A stretch of DNA of 64,000 bases, from the IMG/VR virus record IMGVR_UViG_3300007735_000793, positions 1 through 64,000 of that record; one strand, written 5' to 3'. The notes under the pieces were generated by a model. It ran no database searches. It had not been told where the DNA came from and was given only the letters and a program-made list of their open reading frames with translations. The first letter of the stretch is position 1, and every line of letters begins with the position of its first letter. Source of the DNA: a virus. The position numbers were made by a program, and so were the translations under genes. Below are positions 32,811 to 54,082 of the stretch, in pieces.

Positions 32811-33995
32811 TTAATAGAATAAACCCAAAATTTGATTAAGTGGGGCGAAAGTTCCAGTTAACTTGAGCGTCATACCTTTGTATACAAAAACTATTCCCTC
32901 ATTTGGAACAATCTTATCAGGACCACCTATTGTCGCCATTCTTTCAAGCTCTAATTGTAACTTTCTTATCTTTTTTTCATCCCCACCACTTTTAACATCT
33001 TTAATGGTTTGGTCTAATCGTTGTTTCATATTACGAACTGCTTCATCTGGGTTCACTGTCAATACTGAACTCATAAACGATAATACATCTGCGCCAACCC
33101 CTAAAAATATATCTTCAAATGGTCGAATATTATCTTTTGATATTTTTTGATGATCATTCTTATCCACACCCTTCGCCCACTCTAATACCTTATCCGATTT
33201 TATGTTGTTACTATTTAAGACAAAACTTTTGTCGTAGAATGCCCATCTTTTTATCAAACCTTCTCGTGTAAATTTATCTAATTTTTCGGGTGAGTTTTTA
33301 TCTATGTATTCACCCCACCACGCCTGATGATATTCTGCCATACCATCACTATCTTTTAAACCATATTTTGATTGTAGTTTGTTTAACATCCCCAAATACT
33401 TTGATTGTAATTTTTCCAAGTTTATTTCCTTTGGTAGCTGTGTAATAGGTGGTCCTTGTATTGTGTATTTATCCTGCACATTCTGATTGATTTGTTTAAT
33501 CATTCCCGCTAATACCTTTGCATCAGATTGGTCTGCCCCAATCGCAACACCGGATTCATCGTATTCGGTAGTGTTGTGAAACACCAAAAGAGCCTGACCA
33601 TAAGGTATTACATTTACTGATGTTGGATATATCACTTCCAAATTCATAAACTTTGCACCCTGTTTGAAAATCTTATCCCTTTGTGCTTTTGATAATCGCT
33701 TTATTGCCACTTCTAAATCCCGCATAGCAAAGTTGTAAGCATCAGTTAGCCCACCCCTACCTCCGAACTTTGAAGCAACATCTGCGGCGTTCATTGCGTT
33801 TTCACCCCGATTAGCAAGGTGTCCTTTGTTTCTTGCGGCAATTAACCCCTTATCATCTCGCCAACTAATAGCAAGTGCCTGTCCATCTGTATTATGAACC
33901 AATATACCATTTGCGTAATAACATGAAAAATTATCAACTTTTATGTCATACCTGGTCTGAACTTTGTTTACTGGTTTTATTGATTTAATTTTCAT
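32811..33995 (-). CDS. Split-intein IntC (35 aa) + C-part of an RNA-ligase-like nucleotidyltransferase
   Basis: ..YDIKV..ANGILVHN|TDGQ; ligase-like motifs NLEVI, EGIVF, LKLTG. Confidence 0.8.
   Translation of the reverse strand: MKIKSIKPVNKVQTRYDIKVDNFSCYYANGILVHNTDGQALAISWRDDKGLIAARNKGHLANRGENAMNAADVASKFGGRGGLTDAYNFAMRDLEVAIKRLSKAQRDKIFKQGAKFMNLEVIYPTSVNVIPYGQALLVFHNTTEYDESGVAIGADQSDAKVLAGMIKQINQNVQDKYTIQGPPITQLPKEINLEKLQSKYLGMLNKLQSKYGLKDSDGMAEYHQAWWGEYIDKNSPEKLDKFTREGLIKRWAFYDKSFVLNSNNIKSDKVLEWAKGVDKNDHQKISKDNIRPFEDIFLGVGADVLSFMSSVLTVNPDEAVRNMKQRLDQTIKDVKSGGDEKKIRKLQLELERMATIGGPDKIVPNEGIVFVYKGMTLKLTGTFAPLNQILGLFY
33891..33995 (-). mobile_element. Split intein IntC (35 aa, basic)
   Basis: MKIKSIK..RYDIKVDNFSCYYANGILVHN followed by Thr+1. 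Confidence 0.92.
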
Positions 33996-34007: not shown

Positions 34008-35582
34008 TCAAAGTGTTTTCAATTCCATATCTTCGGTCAAATCTTTAGCCTGAACATATCCTATACCATCTACATACATTCTATGATTTGGGGTTACTTG
34101 AATGGTTTTACCATCTTCCATTTCGATTTCTAACCACTCATCAGTATCATCGTTATTAAAATATGCTATAACATCCATAAATTCACTATTTCCAGTTTCT
34201 TCATTAAATGATAATACCGAATCGGTAAGTTTATTATCTACAAACTCTGATATGGGTATATTTCCATTATTTTTAGTTTGTATAACACTATCACCCGCTA
34301 TGCACTTTTCTCGAGTTAATTCCAAATCACCTTTTAAGGCCTTTGCTATTATGTTTTTTAAATCACCAAAAGTTAAACCCAACTCTAAATCAAACGGATG
34401 ATTCATATGACCGTATGCCCCGCCTTCTGTCAAATAATCGTTGAACTTTCTACCAATTCTTTCTAATAACTTATATTGCTTTCTATCTATTACTTCTAAT
34501 TTTTTTCCAATCACCCATTCAACAACCTCATATCCTAACCCCCTAAATACTTCCTGCAACTCCTTGTCCTCTACACCAGTAATATCAACCTCTACTTCGG
34601 GTGGAGCTTCAGGTGGTGCAACATCCAATGGAGTAGTAGCAATATCAGCAGTTACATAATCTTCCGTTTCGGGTATATCTAAAAGGTCATCCATTGTGAA
34701 TACCTTTCTTCTACTTGCATATTGATAAAAATCACCCGTACCTTTTGCCGATTTTTTAACCATCGCATCTGCTTTTGGAAACTCTATTTGTGTATATCCA
34801 CCACTAACAAACCAATAATCGTTTTTTTGCGCATCTTTACCCAAACCCAATACTCGTTTTTTACCTGGCGGAACATAAATTGCATCAGGCTCACCTGGAT
34901 CTGCACCATATCCACCTCCCAATGATGATTCAATAAGGGGAATTAAATTATACTTACTGAAGAAGTCTGATATAATTTCGTTTACTCCACCCAGCTTTTG
35001 GGTTATCATATTGTATATTTTTGGATTAAATTTTGGATATGCTTTTTTAAATCCCCCTTTTCTTTGTGATTCATCTCCCGCTGATAACCATTTTCTTACA
35101 TCCGTTCCACTTATTGGATTTGGTTGAGCAGGTGATGTATAAACATAACCACTTTCTTCATATCCACTTACAGGTTTAAATCCGGCACCACTATGAAATT
35201 TTTTGAAATATTTACCACCTAATCGTTGTGCATCTTTTTCCCCTACCACAGTTACAAATGCCGTTGTTTGAGGTGAAAATCCACTTAATATTTCAATTGG
35301 ATTATATGGGTTTTTTACCTGCACTACCTTATTCTTTGGAATATTAAACATTGTAGTCATTATTGTTTTTTTCTCCAAAAAATTAAAGGGGTCTTTAGGT
35401 CCACCACTTTTGTTGGATGTCCCAATCCAAACGGCATCCTTACCAAACTTTTGAACTAAATGTGAATAGGTAGCATAATGCCCCTTATGGAAAGGTTGAA
35501 ACCTACCCGCATATACCACCACTATATCTTTGACTTCTTCGGTTAATATCTCTTTAACCCATTCTTTTATTAAATTTCCCAT
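34008..35582 (-). CDS. HIGH-family nucleotidyltransferase + N-part of ligase-like domain + split-intein IntN
   Basis: YAGRFQPFHKGH, VGEKD, ISGTDVR; EGGAYGHMNHPFD..TREK|CIAGDS.. Confidence 0.82.
   Translation of the reverse strand: MGNLIKEWVKEILTEEVKDIVVVYAGRFQPFHKGHYATYSHLVQKFGKDAVWIGTSNKSGGPKDPFNFLEKKTIMTTMFNIPKNKVVQVKNPYNPIEILSGFSPQTTAFVTVVGEKDAQRLGGKYFKKFHSGAGFKPVSGYEESGYVYTSPAQPNPISGTDVRKWLSAGDESQRKGGFKKAYPKFNPKIYNMITQKLGGVNEIISDFFSKYNLIPLIESSLGGGYGADPGEPDAIYVPPGKKRVLGLGKDAQKNDYWFVSGGYTQIEFPKADAMVKKSAKGTGDFYQYASRRKVFTMDDLLDIPETEDYVTADIATTPLDVAPPEAPPEVEVDITGVEDKELQEVFRGLGYEVVEWVIGKKLEVIDRKQYKLLERIGRKFNDYLTEGGAYGHMNHPFDLELGLTFGDLKNIIAKALKGDLELTREKCIAGDSVIQTKNNGNIPISEFVDNKLTDSVLSFNEETGNSEFMDVIAYFNNDDTDEWLEIEMEDGKTIQVTPNHRMYVDGIGYVQAKDLTEDMELKTL
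34011..34304 (-). mobile_element. Split intein IntN (98 aa, acidic)
   Basis: Block A CIAGDSVI, block B VTPNHRMY, GYVQAKDL, then stop. Confidence 0.92.
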
Positions 35583-41118: not shown

Positions 41119-44100
41119 TTATAAAACAATTGAATATGCTATCATTAAAGAAAGTGCGTTGTTAGGTAATACACTACCCACTGTCGCACTTGCATATCCA
41201 GCTCTTGCCGTTGAAAATGTTATAACTGATTGATTATCTGATGTTCCTTGAATTGAATCAGGAACCACCACTTGATAACTATTATCGTATACTGTTATTA
41301 CAGGTGTTCTAAAATTAAGGTTATGATTAAAAGTCCAAGTGGTTGAAGCAACTGATTGTGTAAATGTTGCAAAGTTTTGACCGGAAAATGATGATGCGGT
41401 TAATGCGAGTGTAGCTGTTTGTGCGTTTTCTGCCCAACTTGCCGTTCCATAGAGTGAGCCTGTTATTGAACCACTTACACTTAAAGAACCTGTAATTTGT
41501 ATTTCCGAACCTGAAGCAAATAGTAAATTACTTCTATTACTATCATCAATACCATTACCTATTATAAAAGCAGATTGATCTGGTAATGATATATTATATT
41601 GACCTATTGTTAATTGATAGTCGCCTTGTGCTATTGTTCCTAATCCCTCTGCATGGGAAGCTATTCCTAATGCTAGTGTTCCTGATCCCTCTGCATGTGA
41701 ATACGCCCCAGATGCTATTGTTGAAATCCCTTCGGCATGAGAGCTATAGCCGGAAGATAAAGTACTAGATCCTTCAGCATGAGATGTAGCTCCCGATGAT
41801 ATAGAACTTGCACCTTCGGCGTGTGAATAGTTACCAGATGCTACAGTTTCTGTTCCTTCGGCATGAGAAGCTTCACCGGTGGTCAATGTATCTACACCCT
41901 CGGCATGCGAATAATTACCTGTTGCAGTTGTTGCTTGTCCTTGTACAACTGTCCCTGCTACATCTAATGTTGCTTTTGGAGTAGTTGTTCCAATACCTAC
42001 ATTACTGCCCGTAATTGTTAATTGTGTGGTATCTGCAGTTTGTAAAAATAATGAGCCTGAACCTCTTGCATTTATACTTAAATTTTGGTTATTTGATGTT
42101 CTGATTTCATTAAAGTTGGGTGTTGAATCATATAATGTTCCTATAATAGCCCCACCAATATTAAGTGTAACGGCACCACTACCATCTGATAAAAAGCTTA
42201 AATTAGTGCCACCACCATTTTTAAATATTGTAGCTAATCTAACAGAACCATTTACATCTAATTCTCTTTGTGGTGTTGCAGTTCCAACACCTACTCTACC
42301 ACTACCAGATACAAATAAAGCCGAAGGTGCGGTGGATGAAGAAGCTATTAATAATGCTTCATTATTAGCTCCCGATATATGAAGTCTTGCATTTGGTGAT
42401 GTGGTGTTTATACCAATAAGACCCGATGTATTGTTTATTTGAAATCTTACCGTACTATATGATACATCTTCAATTGTAAAGTTAGAATTAGGAACAACAC
42501 CCATTCTCCAACTATAACTGCTACCTCTATTAAATCTAATTGCACTTCCCTGCGATGCATCCCCCGTCAAATACACTAACTCATTTGTAGCGGATGTTCC
42601 ACTTATATGTAATCTTACAGATGGTGTTGTAGTGCCGATACCAACATTACCACTACTACTAATGGTCATTCTTACAGAACCACTTGTTTCTAATTGTAAA
42701 TCTTGAGTATCGTTAGTGCCTAAAAGTGCCGTAGCCCCAAATGAGTTGCCACCTTGCACAAATGCGTTAGTGCCTGTTGGGGCTATGAATGAAGATGTTA
42801 GTGCGTTTTGAGCCCAAGATGATGTTCCAAATAGTGAACCTGTTATTGAACCATTTACCCTTAATGAGCCTGTAAAGATATGGGTATCATCGGATGAATT
42901 ACCAAATTGAGTTGAGCCTGATTGGTATATTATACTCGCAGATACAAACTCCGTATGAAACTCTTCTGCGGTTATTCTACCAGTTACTAACAAATTACCA
43001 TCTACATGCAACCTTTCAGTTGGTGTTGTAGTGCCTATACCTACATTGCCTGAACTGGATATGAATACTCGTGTAGTATTGTTAGTTTCTAATTGTAGAT
43101 TACTCGCATTAATTGTTCCAATTGTTAGCGGACTACCAACTGCTCCCGTATTATTACCATCATTTAGGATTACTGCATTAGAACCATAAAACAACCTATT
43201 AGATGAGTTTGTCCATAAGTGAGTTGAACTTGGTGCAGTTGTTTGAGATGAATTATTAAAATCAATACCCTTATAATTTAATAAGGTTCTACCCCTCAAT
43301 TGTCCCAAACTGTCATAAGTTTCTGCTATGTAAGAAGCGCTGGTATGAGTAATTCCGCCAAAATCACCATCTATTGTTATAATATTTTTGCTTTGTGTAA
43401 CAGGTCCCCAAAAATTAGTTTTTCCGTAAACTTGAAACCCATCAATAGTGGTTGTGCTTGTAGGCGATGGTGCAGTATCAATTTTTATACCCCTACTAAT
43501 TGCACCAATCCCACCATATACTTCAAATATGTTTTTTCTATTTGCAGACGAAGGACCTGTTCCATCACCCACCACAAATATATTGTTAAAATCAGTCATT
43601 GCTTCATTGTAATGACCTACTACCAATTGACCCGATGATGATGCGATAGTTCCAATACCAAATGCTACTGTCGCAGTTCCTCTTGCCCACGAACCCGAAC
43701 CGGCTGCAAAAGAACCCGAACCATCTGCATCAGTTTCAATACCCACACTAAATGCAGCATATCCACTTGCGGTCGTATTTACACCAGCAGCATGAGCAGC
43801 AAATCCGGAGGCAAGTGTTCCCACACCTTCTGCAAATGAAGCAGTTCCGGTTGTAGTATTATTAAACCCAAAAACGGAAGAGCTTGGAGCATTTACTGCG
43901 GGGTTTATACCCGATAATATTGAATTTACACCTAATTGGTCAGATACCCTTGTCAGATTAGCCGCCAATGTGGGCATCCTAATATCAAAGTTTTGGAAAA
44001 CATCACCACTACCACTTGCGAACTCATTATACCAATCTTCATCAGTATCCAATGTAAATGAACCAGTAGACATACCACTTGCGGTTATGCTTAATATAAG

Positions 44101-44349
44101 TGTACCGTTGTTTACTGTCCAATTAGAACCGGTATTAAAAAATCCTACATTTAATTTTTTATCTTTTTGTAAAAATGATACGGTAGTAGAAATCCCCGCA
44201 TTAACATCTTTTACTATAACCCCACCAGGAACATTAAACTTAAGGGAAACTGCGCCAATATTTACAGATGAAGTATTGCTTAATACACTAATGGTGTAGT
44301 TATCAAGTGTTGTGTTTAATGAGCCTGAATTTGTTAGTGTTACTGCCAT
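41119..44349 (-). CDS. Tail-fibre-like protein with N-terminal cohesin-like domain (Coh-A)
   Basis: aa1-128 VTLTNSGS..IGAVSLKF..LNVGF..NEFASGSGDVFQNFDIRMP; then YadA-like and GNVGIGTT repeats, SHAEG repeats, C-terminal WTFNHNL module. Confidence 0.75.
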   Translation of the reverse strand: MAVTLTNSGSLNTTLDNYTISVLSNTSSVNIGAVSLKFNVPGGVIVKDVNAGISTTVSFLQKDKKLNVGFFNTGSNWTVNNGTLILSITASGMSTGSFTLDTDEDWYNEFASGSGDVFQNFDIRMPTLAANLTRVSDQLGVNSILSGINPAVNAPSSSVFGFNNTTTGTASFAEGVGTLASGFAAHAAGVNTTASGYAAFSVGIETDADGSGSFAAGSGSWARGTATVAFGIGTIASSSGQLVVGHYNEAMTDFNNIFVVGDGTGPSSANRKNIFEVYGGIGAISRGIKIDTAPSPTSTTTIDGFQVYGKTNFWGPVTQSKNIITIDGDFGGITHTSASYIAETYDSLGQLRGRTLLNYKGIDFNNSSQTTAPSSTHLWTNSSNRLFYGSNAVILNDGNNTGAVGSPLTIGTINASNLQLETNNTTRVFISSSGNVGIGTTTPTERLHVDGNLLVTGRITAEEFHTEFVSASIIYQSGSTQFGNSSDDTHIFTGSLRVNGSITGSLFGTSSWAQNALTSSFIAPTGTNAFVQGGNSFGATALLGTNDTQDLQLETSGSVRMTISSSGNVGIGTTTPSVRLHISGTSATNELVYLTGDASQGSAIRFNRGSSYSWRMGVVPNSNFTIEDVSYSTVRFQINNTSGLIGINTTSPNARLHISGANNEALLIASSSTAPSALFVSGSGRVGVGTATPQRELDVNGSVRLATIFKNGGGTNLSFLSDGSGAVTLNIGGAIIGTLYDSTPNFNEIRTSNNQNLSINARGSGSLFLQTADTTQLTITGSNVGIGTTTPKATLDVAGTVVQGQATTATGNYSHAEGVDTLTTGEASHAEGTETVASGNYSHAEGASSISSGATSHAEGSSTLSSGYSSHAEGISTIASGAYSHAEGSGTLALGIASHAEGLGTIAQGDYQLTIGQYNISLPDQSAFIIGNGIDDSNRSNLLFASGSEIQITGSLSVSGSITGSLYGTASWAENAQTATLALTASSFSGQNFATFTQSVASTTWTFNHNLNFRTPVITVYDNSYQVVVPDSIQGTSDNQSVITFSTARAGYASATVGSVLPNNALSLMIAYSIVL

Positions 44350-44418
44350 TTTTTTATTTTATTTCACCCACATTTAGTATAAATATACCCATTATAAATT
44401 AACATTTGGGATGTAACT
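44350..44418. repeat. Near-identical ~65-nt gene-end/promoter block, also at ~46066-46134 and ~52086-52153
   Basis: tattttatttcacccacatttagtataaatatacccattataaattaacatttggg present three times. Confidence 0.9.
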
Positions 44419-45162
44419 TCCGTCTACATCACCCAAACATAATGCCAAATATTGTAAGTTTGTGTTATTAGCTGAAGCAGTTAGTGGTATACCCATAGAT
44501 GATACTGCACCATTTAATGATGATGTAACACCATTTTGTGTCGCAGTACTATCCAAAGCAGTAGCATTTATCCCATACCAACCTCTAAAATTTGCACCGG
44601 AACCTGAACCAAATACCCAATTACCTCTATAATTAGATACACCCGATGTTGATGATTGCAGAAATGCAGTGTCAATTAAATCGATATCAAGAAGATCTAT
44701 GATATCATCACCATTTACATCTGCTGCCAATTGTCTAATACCAGTTAATACATTTCCCACAGCGGCGTGTTGAGATATACGTGACTCATCGACCATGTTT
44801 ACTCCACCCCAAGGTTTACTCGTTTCAAATTGAACATAATAGTTTCCAATAGGAACTGGTCCAAAGTTAAAATCACCAGTAGTTGCGTTTGTATCAACTG
44901 ATGTAAGTTGAGTACCACTTTCATCGAATAATGTCACCCTAGTATTTGTCATTGGTGTTAGGGCGGTATTATCATACCTAACAGTACCAGATTGTTGTAC
45001 ATATACCCTATTATCTAAACTTGATGTAAAATATGTTATTACACCACTTGCGGTGTTATACATCAAAACATGGTTTTTATAAAGGTTGGGTAAGTTACTT
45101 GCAGTTATGTTTAAAACATGCGCAGAACTACCTGATACAATAACCTTTTTCCATGATGGCAT
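44392..45162 (-). CDS. Adaptor-like protein: MPSWKK anchor + Ig-like + dockerin-like module (Doc-1); start revised to 45162
   Basis: SGTVRYDN..GNYY..KPWGGVNMVD..AADVNGDDIIDLLD..GNWVF..LCLGDVDGSY. Confidence 0.75.
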   Translation of the reverse strand: MPSWKKVIVSGSSAHVLNITASNLPNLYKNHVLMYNTASGVITYFTSSLDNRVYVQQSGTVRYDNTALTPMTNTRVTLFDESGTQLTSVDTNATTGDFNFGPVPIGNYYVQFETSKPWGGVNMVDESRISQHAAVGNVLTGIRQLAADVNGDDIIDLLDIDLIDTAFLQSSTSGVSNYRGNWVFGSGSGANFRGWYGINATALDSTATQNGVTSSLNGAVSSMGIPLTASANNTNLQYLALCLGDVDGSYIPNVNL

Positions 45163-45187
45163 ATAACACTCACTAATTTTTAAATCA

Positions 45188-45259
45188 TACAATATGGTTG
45201 GTTACACATACTAAGTGAGTAGTATATGAGCCCACTTCCTTATTCAGGCCAATATTGTA
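45188..45259 (-). ncRNA. Candidate structured cis-regulatory RNA in the 5' leader of Doc-1
   Basis: Outer stem TACAATAT/ATATTGTA, inner CCT-GAATA-AGG and CATATACTA-CTCACT-TAGTATGTG hairpins; GC-richer than neighbouring intergenic DNA. Confidence 0.5.
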
Positions 45260-45334
45260 GTTTTTTGGTTAATTTATACTCAATATATAGTATAAATATA
45301 GAAAAAAAATAATAAATGTTTATTTCCTCAAAAG

Positions 45335-46051
45335 TTATTGAGGGGTGTAACTTCCGTTTACATCACCCAAACATAATGCCAAATATTGTAAGTTTGTGTT
45401 ATTAGCTGAAGCAGTTAGTGGTATACCCATAGATGATACCACGCCTAAACTTGGTGAAACGGCTTGAATCGATACCATTCGCCAACCTCTAAAATTTGCA
45501 CCGGAGCCTGAGCCAAATACCCAATTACCTGCGGGGAATGAAAGGATTGAATTATTTATTCTATTATTAACCGAACTATAATCGTCATTATCTATATCAC
45601 CATCACCATCTACATCTGCTGCTAATTTTCTGATGTTGGTTAGTGGGTTACCATTAATATGTGCTTCTATTAGACTAGCATCATTTGTATTTACTCCACC
45701 CCAAGGTTTACTCGTTTCAAATTGAACATAATAGTTTCCAACAGGAACTTGTCCAAAGTTAAAATTACCATTGGAATCTGTAATAACTAATCTAAATTGA
45801 GTACCATTACTTTTTAATAATTTCACAGTAGTATTTGTCATTGATGTTTGTGCAGTATTATCATACTTAACACTACCAGATTGTTGTACATATACCCTAT
45901 TATCTAAACTTGATGAAAAATATGTTATTACACCACTTGCCGTATCATACATCAATACATTATTTTTGTAAATATTGGGTAAGTTACTTGCAGTTATGTT
46001 TAGTAAGTGAGCTGCACTACCTGATAATATTACTTTTTTCCATGATGGCAT
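45335..46051 (-). CDS. Adaptor-like protein with dockerin-like module (Doc-2)
   Basis: KPWGGVNTNDASLI..AADVDGDGDIDNDD..GNWVF..GDVNGSY. Confidence 0.78.
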   Translation of the reverse strand: MPSWKKVILSGSAAHLLNITASNLPNIYKNNVLMYDTASGVITYFSSSLDNRVYVQQSGSVKYDNTAQTSMTNTTVKLLKSNGTQFRLVITDSNGNFNFGQVPVGNYYVQFETSKPWGGVNTNDASLIEAHINGNPLTNIRKLAADVDGDGDIDNDDYSSVNNRINNSILSFPAGNWVFGSGSGANFRGWRMVSIQAVSPSLGVVSSMGIPLTASANNTNLQYLALCLGDVNGSYTPQ

Positions 46052-46107
46052 ATAATAGTTATTATTTTTTTATTTTATTTCACCCACATTTAGTATAAAT
46101 ATACCCA

Positions 46108-46830
46108 TTATAAATTAACATTTGGGGTGTAACTCCCATTTACATCACCAACTGAAAGTGCCCAATATTGCAAGTATATGTTATCAGCTGAAGCAGTTAG
46201 TGGTATACCAATTGAAGATACTGCCCTATATAATGAGGATGTTTGTCCATTCATAAACCAACCTCTAAAATTTGCACCGGAACCTGAACCAAACACCCAA
46301 TCACCTGCGATGAATGATGAACGCAGGAGTCCGAAACGTTGGTTGGCTTGGAGTGCATCGGTAGTGGTTATAGTATTACTTGCATTTATATCTGCTGCCA
46401 ATTGTCTGATACCAGTTAATAGTTGAGTGTTGCTGAAGTGTCTTGAAATAAGTAATGCATCAGTTGCGGTTACACCACCCCAAGGTTTACTCGTTTGAAA
46501 TCGAACATAATAGTTTCCAACAGGAACTGGTCCAAAGTTAAAATTACCCATCGCGTTTGTAATAACTGATCTAACTTGAGTACCACTTTCATCGAATAAT
46601 TTAACAGTAGTATTTGTCATTGGTGTTAGGCCGGTATTATCATACCTAACAGTACCAGATTGTTGTACATATACCCTATTATCTAAACTTGATGTAAAAT
46701 ATGTTACTGCACCACTTGCCGTATCATAGATTAAAATCGCCTGTTCAAAAGTATTAGATAAATTACTTGCGGTGATGTTTAATACTGATAACGCACTACC
46801 TGATGATATTACTTTTTTCCATGAGGGCAT
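46108..46830 (-). CDS. Adaptor-like protein with dockerin-like module (Doc-3)
   Basis: KPWGGVTATDALLISRHF..AADINASNTITTTDAL..GDWVF..GDVNGSY. Confidence 0.78.
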   Translation of the reverse strand: MPSWKKVISSGSALSVLNITASNLSNTFEQAILIYDTASGAVTYFTSSLDNRVYVQQSGTVRYDNTGLTPMTNTTVKLFDESGTQVRSVITNAMGNFNFGPVPVGNYYVRFQTSKPWGGVTATDALLISRHFSNTQLLTGIRQLAADINASNTITTTDALQANQRFGLLRSSFIAGDWVFGSGSGANFRGWFMNGQTSSLYRAVSSIGIPLTASADNIYLQYWALSVGDVNGSYTPNVNL

Positions 46831-46888
46831 ATAACACTTATTATATAATTACTACTTTATAAGTATATTTTTTTAATAATATTAGTGT

Positions 46889-47113
46889 TTATTTCTCCCC
46901 ATTTAAATCAATATACTGTGATTGGAGTTTGATAATGGTATTATATACCAATTCAACATCACCTACCTTAAAAGTTAAATCTTTTATTGATGTCAGTAAA
47001 AAGGTTATTTCTTCTACATTTAGATTACTTTCATTTAGGGTTGTAGTTTTAACCAATTCTTCCGCCGGAGTTCCAGTAGATGATTTCATTCTTATTTTAT
47101 TTAATAATGACAT
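46889..47113 (-). CDS. Small conserved hypothetical protein
   Basis: 74-aa ORF, EITFLL..IK..TFK..DVE..Y..IIKLQ. Confidence 0.6.
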   Translation of the reverse strand: MSLLNKIRMKSSTGTPAEELVKTTTLNESNLNVEEITFLLTSIKDLTFKVGDVELVYNTIIKLQSQYIDLNGEK

Positions 47114-47155
47114 TTTTTATAACCTTTCATTTTAAATGAGTAATTTTAGTTTTTA

Positions 47156-48931
47156 TTACCCCGCATACACTATATTATCTTGATTATCTGCTAAGTCTGG
47201 ACTCCAAAACCAAATATCACCATTATTCTGAATATACATATTACCAAATCCAAGAAGTTGACCACCAAATTCAGGTGCAGCTGTTGGAACTAAACTTGAT
47301 CTTGTTACGGAAACCAAATAATCAGTTGGGTTTAGTGTAGTTTGAGTGTGCCCTACACTATTGTTCAATCCCCATCTCGCACTAAAAGTTTGATTATTTG
47401 GGGAGGTAACCTCCACTTTTGAATTTAAGAAAAGTGCCGAACCTGTCGGTGAACCACCACTACCCGTTGTATACTGAACGATAATACCACCATCCGTATG
47501 AGTTGCAGAACCTGATATAGAGCCTGAAGCAAGTAGGATAAATCTATCTTCTACCATTACATCTGTAACATTCAATATTGTAGTATTTCCGTTTACTGTC
47601 AGGTCACCACCAACTACAACATTTCCCGTTGTGGTTATACTAGCAGCATTTACAACTCCTGCTGTTGTCGCAGTGAAGCCTGTGGATACTGCAAATGTCG
47701 TACCATTAAAAGTTAAATCATTTTCACCATTTAAAGAATTCCCATCAGTAAATGTTGCGATTCTGTTATCAGCACCATTTGTAGCATCTACTAAACTGGT
47801 GCCGAATACACGGCTATCAATGGCTCGAGTAAACACCTGCCCACTCGAACCCGTAACTAAAACTGCGAGCTCCGATGAACCTACTGGTAAATTTAATATA
47901 TTTACTCTACCCGCGTTTATTGATGCAGTGTCTGCTGCAGCATTTCCTAATGTAGTATTACCTTCTACTGATAAATCACCACCAATAGTTCCATTACCAC
48001 TTGTTGTTAGTATTGCACCTATTAACCCGGCAGAAGAACTTATGTTACCCGATGCTGTCAAGTTTGTGGTTGCAATACCACTACCAGCAACTTGAAGGGT
48101 GTTTGTTGGAGTTCCTGTTCCTATACCCACATTACCACTACCACTTACAACAAACGCATTTGGAGAACCGAGTGAAGATGCCCTTAATATAATGGTGGGG
48201 TTAGTACCAACAACAGATAAAAAAGCATCTGGAGTTGTAGTATTTATACCTACTCTACCACTACCCGATACAAATAGAAAGGCCTGGCTAGCATCTGGTG
48301 CGCCCACTTGTAATAGTGATTGATTAGTGGTGCCAACTACATGTAGTAAAGCGGTTGGTGTAGTAACACCTATACCTACCCTACCCGATGAGTTTATTCG
48401 CATTCTTTCTTGTGCCAAAGAACCACTTTGTGCAGTACCGAATGCAAGGAAAGTATCGGGACTAGCATCTTCAGAAACTGCTTCTATAAAAGCTCTTACT
48501 AATTGTGAATTATTAGAACCAGAGGTATCAGTATCAGATGATTCAAATGCTATTCTACCTATTGATTGAGTTACATCAGATGTTGTATCGGTATCTCTAA
48601 AAGTTATGGTGTTTAGTGATGCGGTTGTACCACCATTTGTACTATACTGCCTACCATTATTATCATTAGCTAATATAACTGAATTTAAATTACCAGTAAA
48701 TGTTCCTGCAAAAGAACCAGTAAAAGAACCCGTTAATATTGAATTAGTACCAGTTGAATTTATATTGGCACCGCCAATTGCTAAAGTAGTTCCGTTATAA
48801 GTTAATCCACTATTTTCAATTTGACCGACATTACCCGCGATAAGTAAATTATCATTTGTTAATACTGATGATGTTATTCCGGATAAGTGGGCTTGTGAAC
48901 CGGATACTATAACCTTTTTCCATGATGGCAT
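47156..48931 (-). CDS. Tail-fibre-like protein with MPSWKKVIVSGS N-terminus
   Basis: GRVGIG repeats; DLTVNG..VEDRFILLASGS..DGGIIV module. Confidence 0.75.
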   Translation of the reverse strand: MPSWKKVIVSGSQAHLSGITSSVLTNDNLLIAGNVGQIENSGLTYNGTTLAIGGANINSTGTNSILTGSFTGSFAGTFTGNLNSVILANDNNGRQYSTNGGTTASLNTITFRDTDTTSDVTQSIGRIAFESSDTDTSGSNNSQLVRAFIEAVSEDASPDTFLAFGTAQSGSLAQERMRINSSGRVGIGVTTPTALLHVVGTTNQSLLQVGAPDASQAFLFVSGSGRVGINTTTPDAFLSVVGTNPTIILRASSLGSPNAFVVSGSGNVGIGTGTPTNTLQVAGSGIATTNLTASGNISSSAGLIGAILTTSGNGTIGGDLSVEGNTTLGNAAADTASINAGRVNILNLPVGSSELAVLVTGSSGQVFTRAIDSRVFGTSLVDATNGADNRIATFTDGNSLNGENDLTFNGTTFAVSTGFTATTAGVVNAASITTTGNVVVGGDLTVNGNTTILNVTDVMVEDRFILLASGSISGSATHTDGGIIVQYTTGSGGSPTGSALFLNSKVEVTSPNNQTFSARWGLNNSVGHTQTTLNPTDYLVSVTRSSLVPTAAPEFGGQLLGFGNMYIQNNGDIWFWSPDLADNQDNIVYAG

Positions 48932-49056
48932 AAATGAACTCCCTTATGATTTTTGACTTTATTCTACCTTATATAAATAGTTGTATATTTTATTTTCCCT
49001 TATAAATAAGTAGTGTTTATTTTTTTTAATGTTACTAATAATTAGTAATTATTTTT

Positions 49057-49701
49057 TTATTCATATCCCAAATAAAAGTTACCATCCGCACTATAATACA
49101 TCCCCCCAGTTACCGGAGTTGGTGGGGTATCAAACTTACCTAAAACCATAACACCCTCTGAATTGATTTGTGCTGCAAGGAAACTACCTGATTTGATAAT
49201 AAAGAAATCAGGCATTTCCGATGATATCTTTGTTTGGATTTGATTTGATTGATTATATATTACTACACTTGATGTGTTTATTCTTACATTTCCTAATTGA
49301 ATATATTCATCTCCCCCAAAAACCTCAGCAGTTGTTACACCATTATCATCCACAAAACTCAAACTTCTGCTTACATAAACATCACTCCAAGCAGCAGTAG
49401 AGCTACCTAATGAGTGTGGGGATGTATTACCCGAAGAAACATGGGGAATTAAAGAACCTGAAAAATTAGCAGAACCTGAAAACGAACTTCTACCAATTAT
49501 CAGTAAATCACCTAAAAGATTAACCGAACCCGTTGTGGTTGTATTGGTGGTAACAGCTGCTTCAATTGATTGACCAGCACTACCTGATTTTTTTAAGAAT
49601 ATTTTACCATCGGCAGTATTTACAGCTAACTCACCCAGCTCTAATGAGGATGTGGTTGGTACATTTCCACTTGTAAGATTTCTTCTAAGTAAAATTGACA
49701 T
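49057..49701 (-). CDS. Fibre protein with Mtd_N-like N-terminal domain
   Basis: ILLRR..VPT..LELGELAVNTADGKIFLK. Confidence 0.65.
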   Translation of the reverse strand: MSILLRRNLTSGNVPTTSSLELGELAVNTADGKIFLKKSGSAGQSIEAAVTTNTTTTGSVNLLGDLLIIGRSSFSGSANFSGSLIPHVSSGNTSPHSLGSSTAAWSDVYVSRSLSFVDDNGVTTAEVFGGDEYIQLGNVRINTSSVVIYNQSNQIQTKISSEMPDFFIIKSGSFLAAQINSEGVMVLGKFDTPPTPVTGGMYYSADGNFYLGYE

Positions 49702-52085
49702 TAATAAAATCCCCCATCAACATTTAATGCAAAGGATGCGGTTATAGAATACGAACTACTTATAGGTGTTCCATTTTCCCATACACCTTCATTATATATC
49801 AACGCCTGCCCATCTGTGGCGGATGTAATGGTTACATTTGTTAAATCATCCAAAGTAGTTACAGCGCTTCCACCACCACCAGCAGCACCACCACCTCTAA
49901 ATAATCCAGCAGGAATTATTTTATTATCAGTAGTGTTGGTTATATCGTTTGTATTACTTTTTAGTACTAAAAACCCTAAAAAGGTTGTAAAATCAAAAGT
50001 ATCACCTTCGGAAAATGAATCGGTTGATAAATTTGCTATTGCGTTTTGATAATCAGGATATATATTCCGGCCATAATAGATATACAACACACCTGTTCTT
50101 GGGTCGGAATACACCCGTTGTATTGTCCAATCATTGTTATTGACTGAACTGGTTGTACCTGTACCTGGATCATAAAATCCAGGTTTTAGTGATGTGTAAA
50201 AAGTATCATTATTCGTATCAAACCTAATTCCAGAACCTGAACTATAAACATATGCTATACTTGCTGTTTCCTGTGCGTTTGTGTTATATTGTGAGGGGAA
50301 TTGTAAATTACTGTCATAAAACCCACCGTGAATATAAGATACACCCGAACCAACAGATAATCTTAAACTTGAAGATTGTCCCGTTAATCCATATCCCGAT
50401 AATTTTAATGGACCGAAAGCATCTATAAAGTTTACTATTTGAGCGGTTTGGTTATACGCGGTCTGAACTGCTCCACCAAAAGCAGAAATACTACTATAAT
50501 TAAAATGCGCCACTGCCCCTAATGGGATATCATCGTGGAATTGCTGTGAGGTAAATCTTGTTGATTGTTGTTGCAATTCCCCATCTTCATCAATGTAGAT
50601 GTATGTTACCTGCTGCGTTGCAATATTTGTTATACTTTGTGTTATAGGTCCCCAAGTTACATAATCTACAATAGGGCCTACTTCAGAATTTGCGGTTACA
50701 TTGTGATTTACAATAATACCACTACCAGGAGAAACAAACACATTACTACCACTATAAGTTACTATACCACCATAAAGTAACCCAGTTTCCAACATCCCCT
50801 CAAACCATTTCCACTTTACTACATTACCATTTTGTCTAAAATATAAATCATTCCCCAAAAGAGTATTGGATGAACTTTGAAATAAAATGGTTGAATTGGA
50901 ATCTAATCCCGATGGATCCGGGTCTTGTGTTGGCTCAAACTTTATACTACCATCAAATACACTATTACCCTTTACTAATAGTGAGCCTGTAAATATGTGG
51001 GTATCATCGGATGAATTACCAAATTGGGTTGAACCACTTTGATAAATGATACTTGCAGACACAAATTCGGTGTGAAACTCTTCTGCGGTTATGCGGCCTG
51101 TTACTAATAGGTTTCCATTTACATGAAGTTTTTCGGTTGGTGCTCCAGTTCCTATACCTACAAACCCAGTAGAACCCGCAATTCTCATTATTTCAGGTTG
51201 GGTAACTGCGCCTGCGTAAAATGATATATCATTTGTTCCAAATAAGCCACCAAGCTCTGATAGCATATAAGCTCCAGTATGTCCGAAACTTGAACTTGCT
51301 ACGGATATATTATTAGTATTATATCTAATATATGGAGTAAACTGTCCTGCGATTAATCCACCTTGTGTGGAAGAGGTTACTGAAGTTACAGTTATACCTC
51401 CGTTTACTTGAAGGGTATTTGTTGGTGTTGTAGTTCCAATACCCACATTACCACTACTACTAATGGTCATTCTCACCGAACCACTTGTCTCTAATCGTAG
51501 GTTTTGATTATCATTTGTTCCGATGGTCATTTCACTACCTAAAGTGTTACCATCGTTTAATATTAATGCGCTAGAACTATAAAACAACCGATTGGATGAG
51601 TTTGTCCATAAGTGAGTTGAACTTGGTGCAGTTGTTTGAGATGAACTATTAAATAATATTGAGTTTAAGCCTAATTGGTCTGATACTCGCGCTATGTCAG
51701 TTACCAACACCGGCATTTTAATATCAAAGTTTTCGAAAACATCGCCACTACCACTTGCGAACTCATTATACGAATCTTCATCAGTATCTAATGTAAATGA
51801 GCCGGTGGACATACCACTTGCGGTTATACTTAATATTGTGTTATTTGTATTTACTGTCCAATTTGAAGTTGTATATAGAGCAATATATAAGTTTTTATCT
51901 TTTTGTAAAAATGATACAGTAGCAGAAATTCCTGCATTAACATCTTTTACTATAACCCCACCAGGAACATTAAACTTAAGATTAACTGCACCAAGATTTA
52001 CAGACGATGTATTACTTAATACACTAATACCATAATTATCAAGTGTTGTGTTTAATGAGCCTGAATTTGTTAGTGTTACTGCCAT
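49701..52085 (-). CDS. Tail-fibre-like protein with N-terminal cohesin-like domain (Coh-B)
   Basis: N-terminal ~125 aa nearly identical to the 44349 gene; shared fibre modules; distinct C-terminal domain. Confidence 0.75.
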   Translation of the reverse strand: MAVTLTNSGSLNTTLDNYGISVLSNTSSVNLGAVNLKFNVPGGVIVKDVNAGISATVSFLQKDKNLYIALYTTSNWTVNTNNTILSITASGMSTGSFTLDTDEDSYNEFASGSGDVFENFDIKMPVLVTDIARVSDQLGLNSILFNSSSQTTAPSSTHLWTNSSNRLFYSSSALILNDGNTLGSEMTIGTNDNQNLRLETSGSVRMTISSSGNVGIGTTTPTNTLQVNGGITVTSVTSSTQGGLIAGQFTPYIRYNTNNISVASSSFGHTGAYMLSELGGLFGTNDISFYAGAVTQPEIMRIAGSTGFVGIGTGAPTEKLHVNGNLLVTGRITAEEFHTEFVSASIIYQSGSTQFGNSSDDTHIFTGSLLVKGNSVFDGSIKFEPTQDPDPSGLDSNSTILFQSSSNTLLGNDLYFRQNGNVVKWKWFEGMLETGLLYGGIVTYSGSNVFVSPGSGIIVNHNVTANSEVGPIVDYVTWGPITQSITNIATQQVTYIYIDEDGELQQQSTRFTSQQFHDDIPLGAVAHFNYSSISAFGGAVQTAYNQTAQIVNFIDAFGPLKLSGYGLTGQSSSLRLSVGSGVSYIHGGFYDSNLQFPSQYNTNAQETASIAYVYSSGSGIRFDTNNDTFYTSLKPGFYDPGTGTTSSVNNNDWTIQRVYSDPRTGVLYIYYGRNIYPDYQNAIANLSTDSFSEGDTFDFTTFLGFLVLKSNTNDITNTTDNKIIPAGLFRGGGAAGGGGSAVTTLDDLTNVTITSATDGQALIYNEGVWENGTPISSSYSITASFALNVDGGFY

Positions 52086-52126
52086 TTTTTATTTTATTTC
52101 ACCCACATTTAGTATAAATATACCCA

Positions 52127-54082
52127 TTATAAATTAACATTTGGGATGTAACTCCCATTTACATCGCCAACTGAAAGTGCAAAGTATGGTAAGTTAATAT
52201 TACCACGAGATGCCGTTAGTGGTATACCAATTGAAGATACTGCCCAATTTGATGGAGATGTTTGTCCATTCATAAACCAACCTCTGAAGGTTGTATCAGT
52301 TGCCGTTGTCCCAAACACCCAATTACCTGCGGTGAATGAAGAACGATTGAAAGTGATTCTTTGCACAATTTGAAGTGGATCGGTGGCGTTTATAGTATTA
52401 CTTGCATTTATATCTGCTGCCAATCTTCTGATACCAGTTAATAGTTGAGTGTTGCTGAAGTGTCTTGCAATATTTAACGCGTCAGCTGCGGTTACTCCAC
52501 GCCAAGGTTTATTCGTATAAAAATCGATATAATAACTTCCCGTTGGAATATTACCACCAAAGTTAAAATCACCAGTCGCGTTTGTAGTAACTGATGCAAT
52601 TGTTTGATAACTACCCACATTTATAGTATCTTCGCGTAATAATCTCACAGTAGTATTTGTCATTGGTGTTTGGCCGGTATTATCATACCTAACAGTACCA
52701 CTTATAGATGCAGTTTCTATTATTGCTGGTGAGATAGGTGGATTACATCCATTAGGGTCATAAAGTGTTATATTATAATTTTGGTTCAATGCGCTTGATG
52801 GGGATGGACTATATTGTGAACATACATATACTATATCGTTAGAACCACCACTAGATGCCCAAGTTTGTGGATTACCATTACAATTGGTATATGTGTATGT
52901 ATCATGCGCACCACGATCTTCTATCAGCCAAGTTACACATAGAGGTGGTAAATTGGAGTATGTAACCTCACCACTTTGGGTATTATACATTAGGTAAAAC
53001 TCTTGCAATTGATTACGTGATTCGGTTAGATATAGTGAACCCGTTATTTCAAAATGTGAGCCGGATGTATATACCAAATTTTTTTGAGAACCCAAACTAC
53101 CTCTACCTATTATAAAAGAACCAGGTGTTTCCATCGGTAAGTTAAATTGACCAATTACACTTTGATAATCTCCTTGTGCTATTGTTGTATTTCCGGCGGC
53201 ATGTGAATAATTACCTGATGCGGATGTGAAATATCCTTCGGCATGAGAATAAGAGCCCGATGCGATTGTTTGGTTTCCTTCGGCATGAGAATAATTACCA
53301 TATGCAGTTGTTCTATCTCCTTCAGCATGAGAAGAAAAACCTAATGCGATTGTTCGGTCTCCTTCAGCATGAGAAATTTGACCAAGTGCTTTTGTTTGTT
53401 GTCCTTCTGTATGAGAAGCATAACCGGATGCGGTTGTAAGATATCCTTCGGCATGAGAACCTTCGTTTGTGGCGGTTGTAAGTAGTCCTTCGGCATGAGA
53501 ATATTGGCCTGATGCGGTTGTGTATTGTCCTTCAGCATGAGAATAAGAGCCTGATGCCAATGTGTACTCTCCTTGTGCATGTGAACCAGTACCTACTGCC
53601 ATTAACCCCAAACCACCCTGCTGAAAACTACCTAATAAATCAAGTTTTGCTGTTGGTGTACTCAACCCAATACCAACTCTTTGAGTTTGATAATTATATA
53701 CAAAATCCGCAGAACCACTAAATTTGCTAGCGCTATTAAATTGAACTGCCATATCGGGTGGTGCTGCACCAGTTGCTGCACCAGTTCCACCTAAAAAATC
53801 TCCCAACTCAACCCAGTCATTAACAGTGTTGGTTCTTTGATTTGGTAAGAACGCAGAACCTGTGTTTATGTATACATAATATTTACTTACATCTTGTTGA
53901 TAACACAATAAACCTTCAAAGCACAAACTATAATCTATAGCAAGTCTGTTACTTTGAGATAGTGCCAACATTCTAAAATCTAATGCCCACGACGGGTTAG
54001 TTAATGGGGAATAGTATGAACCTCCACTCGGAGTTTGTTGAAACTGATTTGGGTTGTTTGGGCTTATTTGTATTTGAGACAT
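52127..54082 (-). CDS. YadA-head-repeat fibre with C-terminal Ig + dockerin-like module (Doc-4)
   Basis: ~10 SH[AT]EG 14-aa repeats, small 4-Cys domain, then SGTVRYDN..VTAADALNIARHF..AADINASNTINATD..GDVNGSY. Confidence 0.78.
   Translation of the reverse strand: MSQIQISPNNPNQFQQTPSGGSYYSPLTNPSWALDFRMLALSQSNRLAIDYSLCFEGLLCYQQDVSKYYVYINTGSAFLPNQRTNTVNDWVELGDFLGGTGAATGAAPPDMAVQFNSASKFSGSADFVYNYQTQRVGIGLSTPTAKLDLLGSFQQGGLGLMAVGTGSHAQGEYTLASGSYSHAEGQYTTASGQYSHAEGLLTTATNEGSHAEGYLTTASGYASHTEGQQTKALGQISHAEGDRTIALGFSSHAEGDRTTAYGNYSHAEGNQTIASGSYSHAEGYFTSASGNYSHAAGNTTIAQGDYQSVIGQFNLPMETPGSFIIGRGSLGSQKNLVYTSGSHFEITGSLYLTESRNQLQEFYLMYNTQSGEVTYSNLPPLCVTWLIEDRGAHDTYTYTNCNGNPQTWASSGGSNDIVYVCSQYSPSPSSALNQNYNITLYDPNGCNPPISPAIIETASISGTVRYDNTGQTPMTNTTVRLLREDTINVGSYQTIASVTTNATGDFNFGGNIPTGSYYIDFYTNKPWRGVTAADALNIARHFSNTQLLTGIRRLAADINASNTINATDPLQIVQRITFNRSSFTAGNWVFGTTATDTTFRGWFMNGQTSPSNWAVSSIGIPLTASRGNINLPYFALSVGDVNGSYIPNVNL

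Follow-up and report, generated by a model that had tools for sequence, protein, structure and literature searches.

What are dockerin and cohesin modules doing at the ends of phage tail-fibre proteins? The question is raised by a run of genes in IMG/VR record IMGVR_UViG_3300007735_000793, a 97-kb record of an uncultured phage (CheckV completeness 51%) whose host is probably a member of the Bacteroidota; the window analysed here is its first 64 kb. Four proteins in the window end in an immunoglobulin (Ig)-like domain bearing a dockerin, two long fibres begin with a domain that models as a cohesin, and each of these fibres is encoded directly after one of the four. Cohesin-dockerin pairs, which hold together cellulosomes and a handful of further complexes in cells, are among the tightest non-covalent connectors known between proteins. 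Judged from the sequences and structure models, a non-covalent dockerin-cohesin joint probably mounts distal fibres on proximal fibres or small adaptors. Every gene of the fibre region lies on the minus strand, and the open reading frames concerned are present at the following coordinates:

52127..54082, minus strand: D4, a fibre-like protein of 651 amino acids (aa) with YadA-head-like repeats mid-protein and the Ig-like domain, dockerin and tail at its end
52086..52126, minus strand: spacer of 41 nucleotides (nt) from the D4 stop to the C2 start, within a ~140-nt junction near-identical to that at 44350-44391
49701..52085, minus strand: tail fibre of 794 aa whose first 145 aa (51654-52085) are the predicted cohesin-fold domain C2; PHROG fibre-repeat matches
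46108..46830, minus strand: adaptor D3, 240 aa, with an MPSWKK N-terminus, an Ig-like domain, a dockerin and a tail ending GDVNGSYTPNVNL
45335..46051, minus strand: adaptor D2, 238 aa, with the canonical calcium loop DVDGDGDIDNDD and a Pfam Dockerin_1 score of 32.0 bits
44392..45192, minus strand: adaptor D1, 266 aa with the TTG start and 256 aa with the ATG start at 45162, directly upstream of fibre C1
44350..44391, minus strand: spacer of 42 nt from the D1 stop to the C1 start, in frame and with three TAA codons
41119..44349, minus strand: tail fibre of 1076 aa whose first 145 aa (43915-44349) are the predicted cohesin-fold domain C1

The original prediction held that four proteins share the C-terminal Ig-like and dockerin module, that two long fibres share their N-terminal domain, and that each fibre gene directly follows a dockerin-ending gene. 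All three statements are borne out. D1, D2 and D3 align as tandem paralogs that are 68-70% identical to one another (70% for D1 and D2), and the final ~200 aa of D4 (module at ~52130-52714) align with them through the motifs KPWGGV, AAD[VI][ND], G[ND]WVFG and GDV[ND]GSY. Pfam Dockerin_1 (PF00404, cutoff 22.9 bits) recognises D2 and D3 (29.3 bits), while D4 (21.2 bits) and D1 (19.4 bits) fall below the cutoff and are 51-70% identical to the others. D4 also matches the dockerin-family profile (E 2.4e-81) and Pfam YadA_head (46.5 bits). Pfam matches to CarboxypepD_reg (33.4 bits in D3), SdrD_B and SpaA-type Ig-like domains lie immediately N-terminal of the dockerin, and true dockerins (8x39, 6kgc_B and 4uyq_B) are among the PDB sequence matches of the module. 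Across all 97 kb of the record, the count is exactly four for this dockerin module and exactly two for the fibre N-domain. The D1 gene likely starts at the ATG at 45162, which yields the MPSWKK N-terminus, rather than at the TTG at 45192.

The AlphaFold2 model of D2 has an overall predicted local distance difference test score (pLDDT) of 81.9, which exceeds 90 from residue 52 on. It contains strands at residues 54-112, three helices at 122-165 (pLDDT >90) and further strands at 177-227; residues 1-51 are disordered, in line with an attachment segment. Foldseek assigns the Ig part to SdrD-B and CnaB domains and the helices to the dockerin 4uyq_B (38% identity, template modelling (TM) score 0.60 on the target), with weak X-dockerin matches. 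Because beta strands follow as well as precede the helices in this model, the Ig-like domain may contain the dockerin as an insertion. The second dockerin calcium loop is canonical (DVDGDGDIDNDD, DVNGDDIIDLLD) or near-canonical (DINASNTIxxTD).

The shared N-terminal domain of the two fibres (145 aa at 83% identity) has, by its model, a cohesin-like fold. The AlphaFold2 model of C1 is all-beta, and its nine strands form the flattened beta-sandwich of ~140 residues that is expected of a cohesin. In a structural search with this model against 48,161 PDB representatives, every one of the 21 best-ranked chains is a cohesin (Z 8.2 to 5.4), among them 7urp_A (Z 8.2) and 1ohz_A (Z 7.2), with 103-122 residues aligned at a root-mean-square deviation (rmsd) of 3.0-4.0 (5.7 for 3kcp_A). 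The check proposed in the original prediction, whether the domain would model as a cohesin or as another fold, thus came out for the cohesin. Foldseek also puts cohesins on top, yet weakly (best E 5.5e-3) and with carbohydrate-binding modules interspersed. By sequence, the best match of the N-domain family profile in the PDB is the Archaeoglobus fulgidus cohesin 2xdh, at a marginal E of 0.0012. A single-sequence phmmer search of PDB sequences returns chance-level matches only. The profile matches a protein of another phage, record G004 (E 5.9e-6), in which Pfam Cohesin scores 29.2 bits, and PF00963 is present in 13-18% of the members of the ESM Atlas clusters nearest the N-domain. A HMMER search of 1.8 billion representatives found only 12 relatives of the N-domain; in nine of these the domain starts at residue 1 of proteins that are 134 to 1206 aa long.

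Dockerin and cohesin genes are separated by only 42 nt (D1 to C1) and 41 nt (D4 to C2). In a DNA alignment of 43930-44460 with 51670-52200, ~140 nt across the dockerin end, the spacer and the cohesin start are near-identical between the two junctions, and the interface-coding parts that flank them differ. This pattern suggests recombination or gene conversion at the junction, and the spacer may also contain a shared promoter or ribosome-binding signal. Expression of dockerin and cohesin as a fusion by read-through or frameshifting was considered and rejected: the gaps, which range from 17 to 42 nt when related phages are included, fall in differing frames, and read-through from D1 into C1 is unlikely because the in-frame spacer has three TAA codons.

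The same split arrangement is found in every related phage locus that was recovered. A viral scan with a single N-domain sequence gave no match, and using the family alignment as query recovered 13 metagenome and 3 IMG/VR loci (~11 of the 16 distinct) with a fibre start domain that is 49-92% identical. At all 16 loci, a gene that ends in the Ig-like domain, dockerin and tail stops 17-42 nt upstream of a cohesin-starting fibre, which bears out the adjacency that the original prediction had proposed to survey; neither these loci nor the two pairs in the window contain a dockerin-cohesin fusion. The upstream proteins are 261 to 1516 aa long, excluding those cut by contig ends; dockerin proteins of relatives score 28.0, 29.4 and 38.8 bits with Dockerin_1, and cohesin-starting proteins in the protein library reach 1206 aa. 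The junction is constant while the lengths of the flanking proteins vary, so both outer parts appear to be exchangeable. Three related virus records have one dockerin and one cohesin apiece, and a close relative (locus L105) has the same three tandem adaptors ahead of its cohesin fibre.

A more distant case is G004, the record of a complete 299-kb jumbo phage with direct terminal repeats. At the loci L099:2380-3459 and L104:976-2133 it encodes an fn3-Ig-dockerin protein (Dockerin_1 38.8 bits) and, ~80 kb from the dockerin gene, a 385-aa protein with two cohesin-like modules (the 29.2-bit Pfam Cohesin match above). This looks like a second, independent acquisition, because the G004 cohesins branch apart from the main phage clade.

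In cells, the two halves occur as one chain. The fusion of two modules in one genome and their separation in another is a classic hint that the halves interact. A scan of one genome per species confirmed 135 stretches as relatives. The best 80 loci (L019-L098) come almost entirely from Bacteroidota, for example Natronoflexus, Alkalitalea, Draconibacterium and Lentimicrobiaceae, and a genome often has more than one of them. Among the reading frames of the examined loci, 58 carry the dockerin before the cohesin, with a T9SS sorting domain after it, and 6 have the reverse order. The 1172-aa protein P0012 has the following layout: an Ig-like domain, Dockerin_1, a tail ending GDVNGSYNPNVNL, a linker of ~20 residues, an N-domain homolog and Por_Secre_tail, the sorting domain of the type IX secretion system (T9SS). 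P0033, P0036, P0040 and P0043 share this single-chain arrangement, and P0039 has a Pfam Cohesin match (24.2 bits, cutoff 24.1) N-terminal of its Ig-dockerin module. Against the cell cassettes the phage cohesin profile scores from 85 down to 30 bits, and a search with the phage dockerin protein returns P0033 at E 2.9e-25. The domain order that the original prediction ascribed to single secreted Bacteroidota proteins is therefore found, fused to a T9SS sorting domain.

In a tree of cohesin-like modules, 14 distinct phage copies form one clade with a Shimodaira-Hasegawa-like approximate likelihood ratio test (SH-aLRT) support of 99, and six cassettes from freshwater Bacteroidota genomes are its sister (SH-aLRT 93); the cell cassettes closest to the phage copies are from lake and pond genomes. 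Phage clade and sister are nested inside the cell diversity under midpoint rooting, which does not establish the root. The dockerin tree does not resolve well enough to tell whether the phage dockerins arose once. The cohesin tree would fit a single capture of the cassette, which was later cut at its linker.

Three further observations concern the cassette itself. In several Bacteroidota genomes (Draconibacterium, Natronoflexus pectinivorans, Alkalitalea saponilacus and Bacteroidales metagenome-assembled genomes), the gene just downstream of the cassette gene encodes three or four tandem cohesin-like modules in a scaffoldin-like array (L070:4163-7156, L084:4177-7125, L085:4177-7155, L054:4163-7036, L075:4164-7154 and L087:4176-7160), which hints at cellulosome-like surface assemblies in this phylum; Bacteroidetes genomes have been reported to lack cellulosomal components (PMC5831590). 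Five loci with the cassette and a T9SS sorting domain (L026, L049, L055, L064 and L086) carry Sphingomonadales or Alphaproteobacteria titles. These contigs are probably mis-binned, because the sorting domain is a Bacteroidota trait. Finally, the cohesin model has no match at E 0.001 or better in the BFVD viral structure library, and the second-best structural match there (TM 0.45, rmsd 3.9, E 0.011) is A0A6J5M064, a 636-aa protein of an uncultured Caudovirales phage labelled 'Secretion system C-terminal sorting domain', which may be a fused cassette on a phage-labelled contig.

Would the phage halves bind one another? The original prediction called for models of all 4 x 2 pairs; one pair was predicted, C1 with D1 residues 62-266 and two calcium ions, together with three controls, and for that pair the outcome is favourable. 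The C1-D1 complex has an interface score (ipSAE) of 0.87 (0.84, 0.88 and 0.87 in separate runs), and all three controls score 0.00. In calibration, 58 of 80 solved complexes and 2 of 110 mismatched pairs attained that mark; cohesin-dockerin complexes are well represented among solved structures, so a pass indicates likeness and not binding. The runs agree in at least 90% of contacts, with a partner pLDDT of at least 82. On the dockerin side, the predicted contacts involve the first and last dockerin helices and the GDVxGSY tail, with residues 129-140, 174-180 and 257-261 of the 266-aa D1 in the predicted interface. On the cohesin side, they involve residues 32-37, 58-73 and 104-117, which correspond to three neighbouring strands and the segment before the last strand. 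This predicted surface would be consistent with the canonical sheet (strands 8-3-6-5 of solved complexes).

These modules could instead serve in docking to the host by mimicry, if the phage dockerin tips, the phage cohesins or both bind the homologous surface cassette of the host and thus act as receptor-binding parts and not as joints. Bacteroidota genomes encode the cassette several times over, and it is common on their predicted surface proteins; a C-terminal dockerin on a small protein with a virion-type N-terminus occupies the usual place of a receptor-binding tip; and two of the four dockerins have no assigned cohesin. However, the strict adjacency of dockerin end and cohesin start (16/16) and the single pair in each of three virus records point to an internal pair, the cohesin is located at the fibre N-terminus, which is normally virion-proximal, and the phage dockerin and cohesin are predicted with high confidence to bind each other. 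We regard mimicry as improbable and continue with the fibre joint.

Sequence variation also bears on whether the predicted surface is used. Substitutions between C1 and C2 affect 8 of 25 predicted interface positions and 12 of 103 others (one-sided Fisher p = 0.018), and L105 and L106 have both types of cohesin patch in unchanged form. Among paralogs the dockerin helices are strongly divergent, but orthologs in L105 retain them; an ortholog of D3 is present there. In the window and its relatives alike, D1 precedes a C1-type cohesin and D4 a C2-type cohesin. D3 resembles D4, and D2, which is distinct, may have its partner in the missing half of the genome.

If the modules were inherited without any mutual binding, an ancestral fibre gene bearing the cassette would have split, its halves would persist as spacers or weakly adhesive Ig-like decorations, and the fibres would be joined by other surfaces. 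Such a split would by itself yield the adjacency, Ig-like domains are common and dispensable decorations of phage structural proteins, and two of the dockerins score below the Pfam cutoff. Against this stand the cut exactly at the dockerin-to-cohesin linker in every locus with freely swapped outer parts, the clustering of C1/C2-type differences in the predicted interface, and the conservation of paralog-specific helices between phages. This explanation is accordingly given a low probability, and a binding joint is again preferred.

The adaptors may reach the particle through their N-termini, which they share with one further protein of the cluster:

47156..48931, minus strand: tail fibre of 591 aa matching phrog_9942 (tail fibre), with no dockerin and no cohesin

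Alignment shows an N-terminal MPSWKKVIxSGS segment common to this fibre and D1-D3, and the fibre also has a weak N-terminal match to the adaptor profile. The full segment is ~55 residues long (MPSWKK[VI]...SGS...NITAS...YDTASG.xTYF.SS) and recurs in several related-phage proteins (window 44392-48931; L004:1199-1969; L005:6393-7967). It is probably an attachment or trimerisation element, and its presence in both adaptors and fibre suggests the same attachment site on the particle. A YDxxSGxxTY-like motif repeats within long fibre proteins just N-terminal of the Ig-dockerin module. It is very unlikely that the small dockerin proteins are assembly helpers, which would contact the fibre N-domains transiently while these fold or assemble and would be missing from the mature particle. 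They are small, tandemly repeated and adjacent to fibre genes, like tail-fibre assembly proteins elsewhere, but they share this N-terminus with the 591-aa fibre, the dockerins of relatives end long fibre-like proteins (449 to 1516 aa), and the genes of known fibre chaperones mostly lie downstream, their products acting on the C-terminal tip.

Several results weigh against a dockerin-cohesin joint. Pfam Cohesin (PF00963) has no match to either fibre at E up to 1, and confidence in the C1 model is moderate (pLDDT 61.6, predicted TM score 0.60). The first dockerin calcium loop is degenerate: acidic residues are missing at its positions 1, 3 and 5, and profile position 8 is where the Pfam match begins; the invariant C-terminal GDVxGSY may perhaps supply the missing half of this loop. 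The C1-D1 score may partly mirror the prediction model's memory of solved cohesin-dockerin complexes, and the custom alignments and riding calcium ions in that prediction differ from the calibration of the tool. Enrichment of variation at the interface is not significant on the dockerin side (p = 0.085). Finally, with four dockerins and two cohesins in the 97-kb record (51% complete), two dockerins are left without an assigned partner.

Weighed against these points, a joint between tail-fibre proteins made by a non-cellulosomal dockerin-cohesin pair still best accounts for what the domains are, for their fused arrangement in cells and split arrangement in phages, for the constant gene order and for the confident predicted interface. 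The upstream partner would be either a long YadA-like fibre segment or a ~240-aa MPSWKK adaptor, in each case ending in an Ig-like domain that bears the dockerin, and the next gene would supply a fibre that begins with the cohesin-fold domain. The dockerin helices and the C-terminal GDVxGSY tail would dock onto one cohesin sheet and thereby mount the distal fibre on the proximal piece. We infer that the halves would bind, that binding may depend on calcium, that the proteins would be present in virions, and which dockerin would pair with which cohesin; the joint is probably trimer to trimer. The phage pair would be the split form of the Bacteroidota cassette, which in cells is fused just ahead of the T9SS sorting domain. 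Related phages retain each of the two cohesin types and the four dockerin variants, which probably reflects distinct pairings that would place different fibres on different anchors. A combinatorial plug-in system is a more tentative extension of the joint. Mutually orthogonal specificities, with at least two types of cohesin and up to four of dockerin that are each conserved between phages, would set which fibre is mounted on which anchor, and cassette swaps at the conserved junction would change host range. Given their likely descent from a surface-protein cassette of the host, some unpaired dockerins might also latch onto host surface cohesins during adsorption. We consider this full scheme possible but rather doubtful.

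The wider gene content agrees with a structural role. With a portal gene and an SbcC-like nuclease in the window, and several PHROG families of tail fibres and virion proteins, the region is recognisable as the block of structural genes of a large tailed phage. Genes of the cluster or its flanks match the tail-fibre families 9942, 18345 and 17885 and the virion structural families 16122 and 5838. Both the position in this block and the similarity to fibres are those of a phage tail-fibre or receptor-binding module. The C-terminal part of the 1076-aa fibre has YadA-head-like repeats and a virion-protein-like end, with PHROG tail fibre and virion structural protein matches. Fibre shafts with repeated SSSGNVGIGTTTP motifs (41119-44349, 49701-52085 and relatives; ~406-516 of profile A3, built from full-length fibres) match the Bdellovibrio fibres 8ojn, 8ond and 8ol4 at E down to 5e-10, with the labels 'cell wall surface anchor family protein' and bd2133; these matches came via the shaft and were discarded as evidence on the N-domain. 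Elsewhere in the window, cytidyltransferase and helicase PHROGs are matched by 34008-35582, and no PHROG is matched by 32811-33995.

Among GenBank phages, no match was obtained by megablast with the whole locus or by tblastn with the cohesin domain, and the sole tblastn match of the dockerin adaptor is a 57-residue Ig-domain stretch in a Bacillus phage. The two tblastn outcomes indicate that no isolated phage in this collection carries the dockerin-cohesin system. A literature search likewise found no earlier description of a dockerin-cohesin joint in a virus particle, as the original prediction had supposed, and the few phage papers that mention dockerin concern unrelated annotations. The Ig-dockerin-cohesin cassette of Bacteroidota T9SS cargo was not found described in the literature either. 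Most likely, the system is a new setting for the known cohesin-dockerin interaction that has not been reported in the literature searched.

If binding is real, it would give phages a route to convert a host surface-protein cassette into a modular fibre joint, and it would account for the exchange of very different fibres at one fixed junction. It would also supply natural connectors, perhaps mutually orthogonal, with which phages could be retargeted or protein assemblies built. The analysis further highlights a widespread cassette on Bacteroidota T9SS cargo that sometimes adjoins multi-cohesin proteins.

Like the type I pairs of clostridial cellulosomes (1ohz, 2vn5 and 6kgc), the phage pair has a dockerin matched by Pfam Dockerin_1, an N-domain with a cohesin-like beta-sandwich (Z ~7 to 1ohz_A, 2vn5_A and 6kgc_A) and a predicted contact of dockerin helices on one sheet of the sandwich. 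Unlike them, it has a degenerate first calcium loop, a GDVxGSY tail in the predicted interface and an N-domain to which Pfam Cohesin is blind. Its carriers are fibre proteins: no enzyme or carbohydrate-binding domain is found among the eight proteins by Pfam or PHROG, and in place of a multi-cohesin scaffoldin with dockerin-bearing enzymes, each protein has one cohesin followed by a fibre shaft. The X-module-dockerin dyads of type II/III cellulosomal systems (5k39 and 4wi0) also pack an Ig-like module against the dockerin, with weak Foldseek matches to 5k39_B and 4wi0_B. In the phage model, however, strands both precede and follow the dockerin helices, and no sequence similarity of the phage Ig-like module to X modules was found.

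In phages such as T4, with its long-fibre joints, and CBA120, G7C and K1-5-like phages, with their adaptor-mounted tailspikes, distal fibres are mounted by their N-terminal domains on proximal fibre or adaptor proteins, so that one particle can carry several receptor-binding proteins. These assemblies work alike but use phage-specific domains, and to our knowledge neither cohesin nor dockerin has been reported in their joints. In the non-cellulosomal modules of A. fulgidus (2xdh) and of the glycosidase/toxin complexes of Clostridium perfringens (2vo8, 2o4e and 2w1n), the pair likewise assembles unrelated proteins outside cellulose breakdown. The first is the best profile match of the N-domain family and the other three are among its fold matches; those modules belong to cellular secreted proteins, whereas the phage pair is part of a virus structural module and is split from a cell-fused cassette. 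The Bacteroidota T9SS cassette itself (P0012, P0033, P0040 and P0043; L019-L098) is homologous in both halves, with the same domain order and the tail motif GDVNGSY. In cells it forms a single chain with Por_Secre_tail at its end, whereas the phage form is two genes, cut at the linker and free of the sorting domain.

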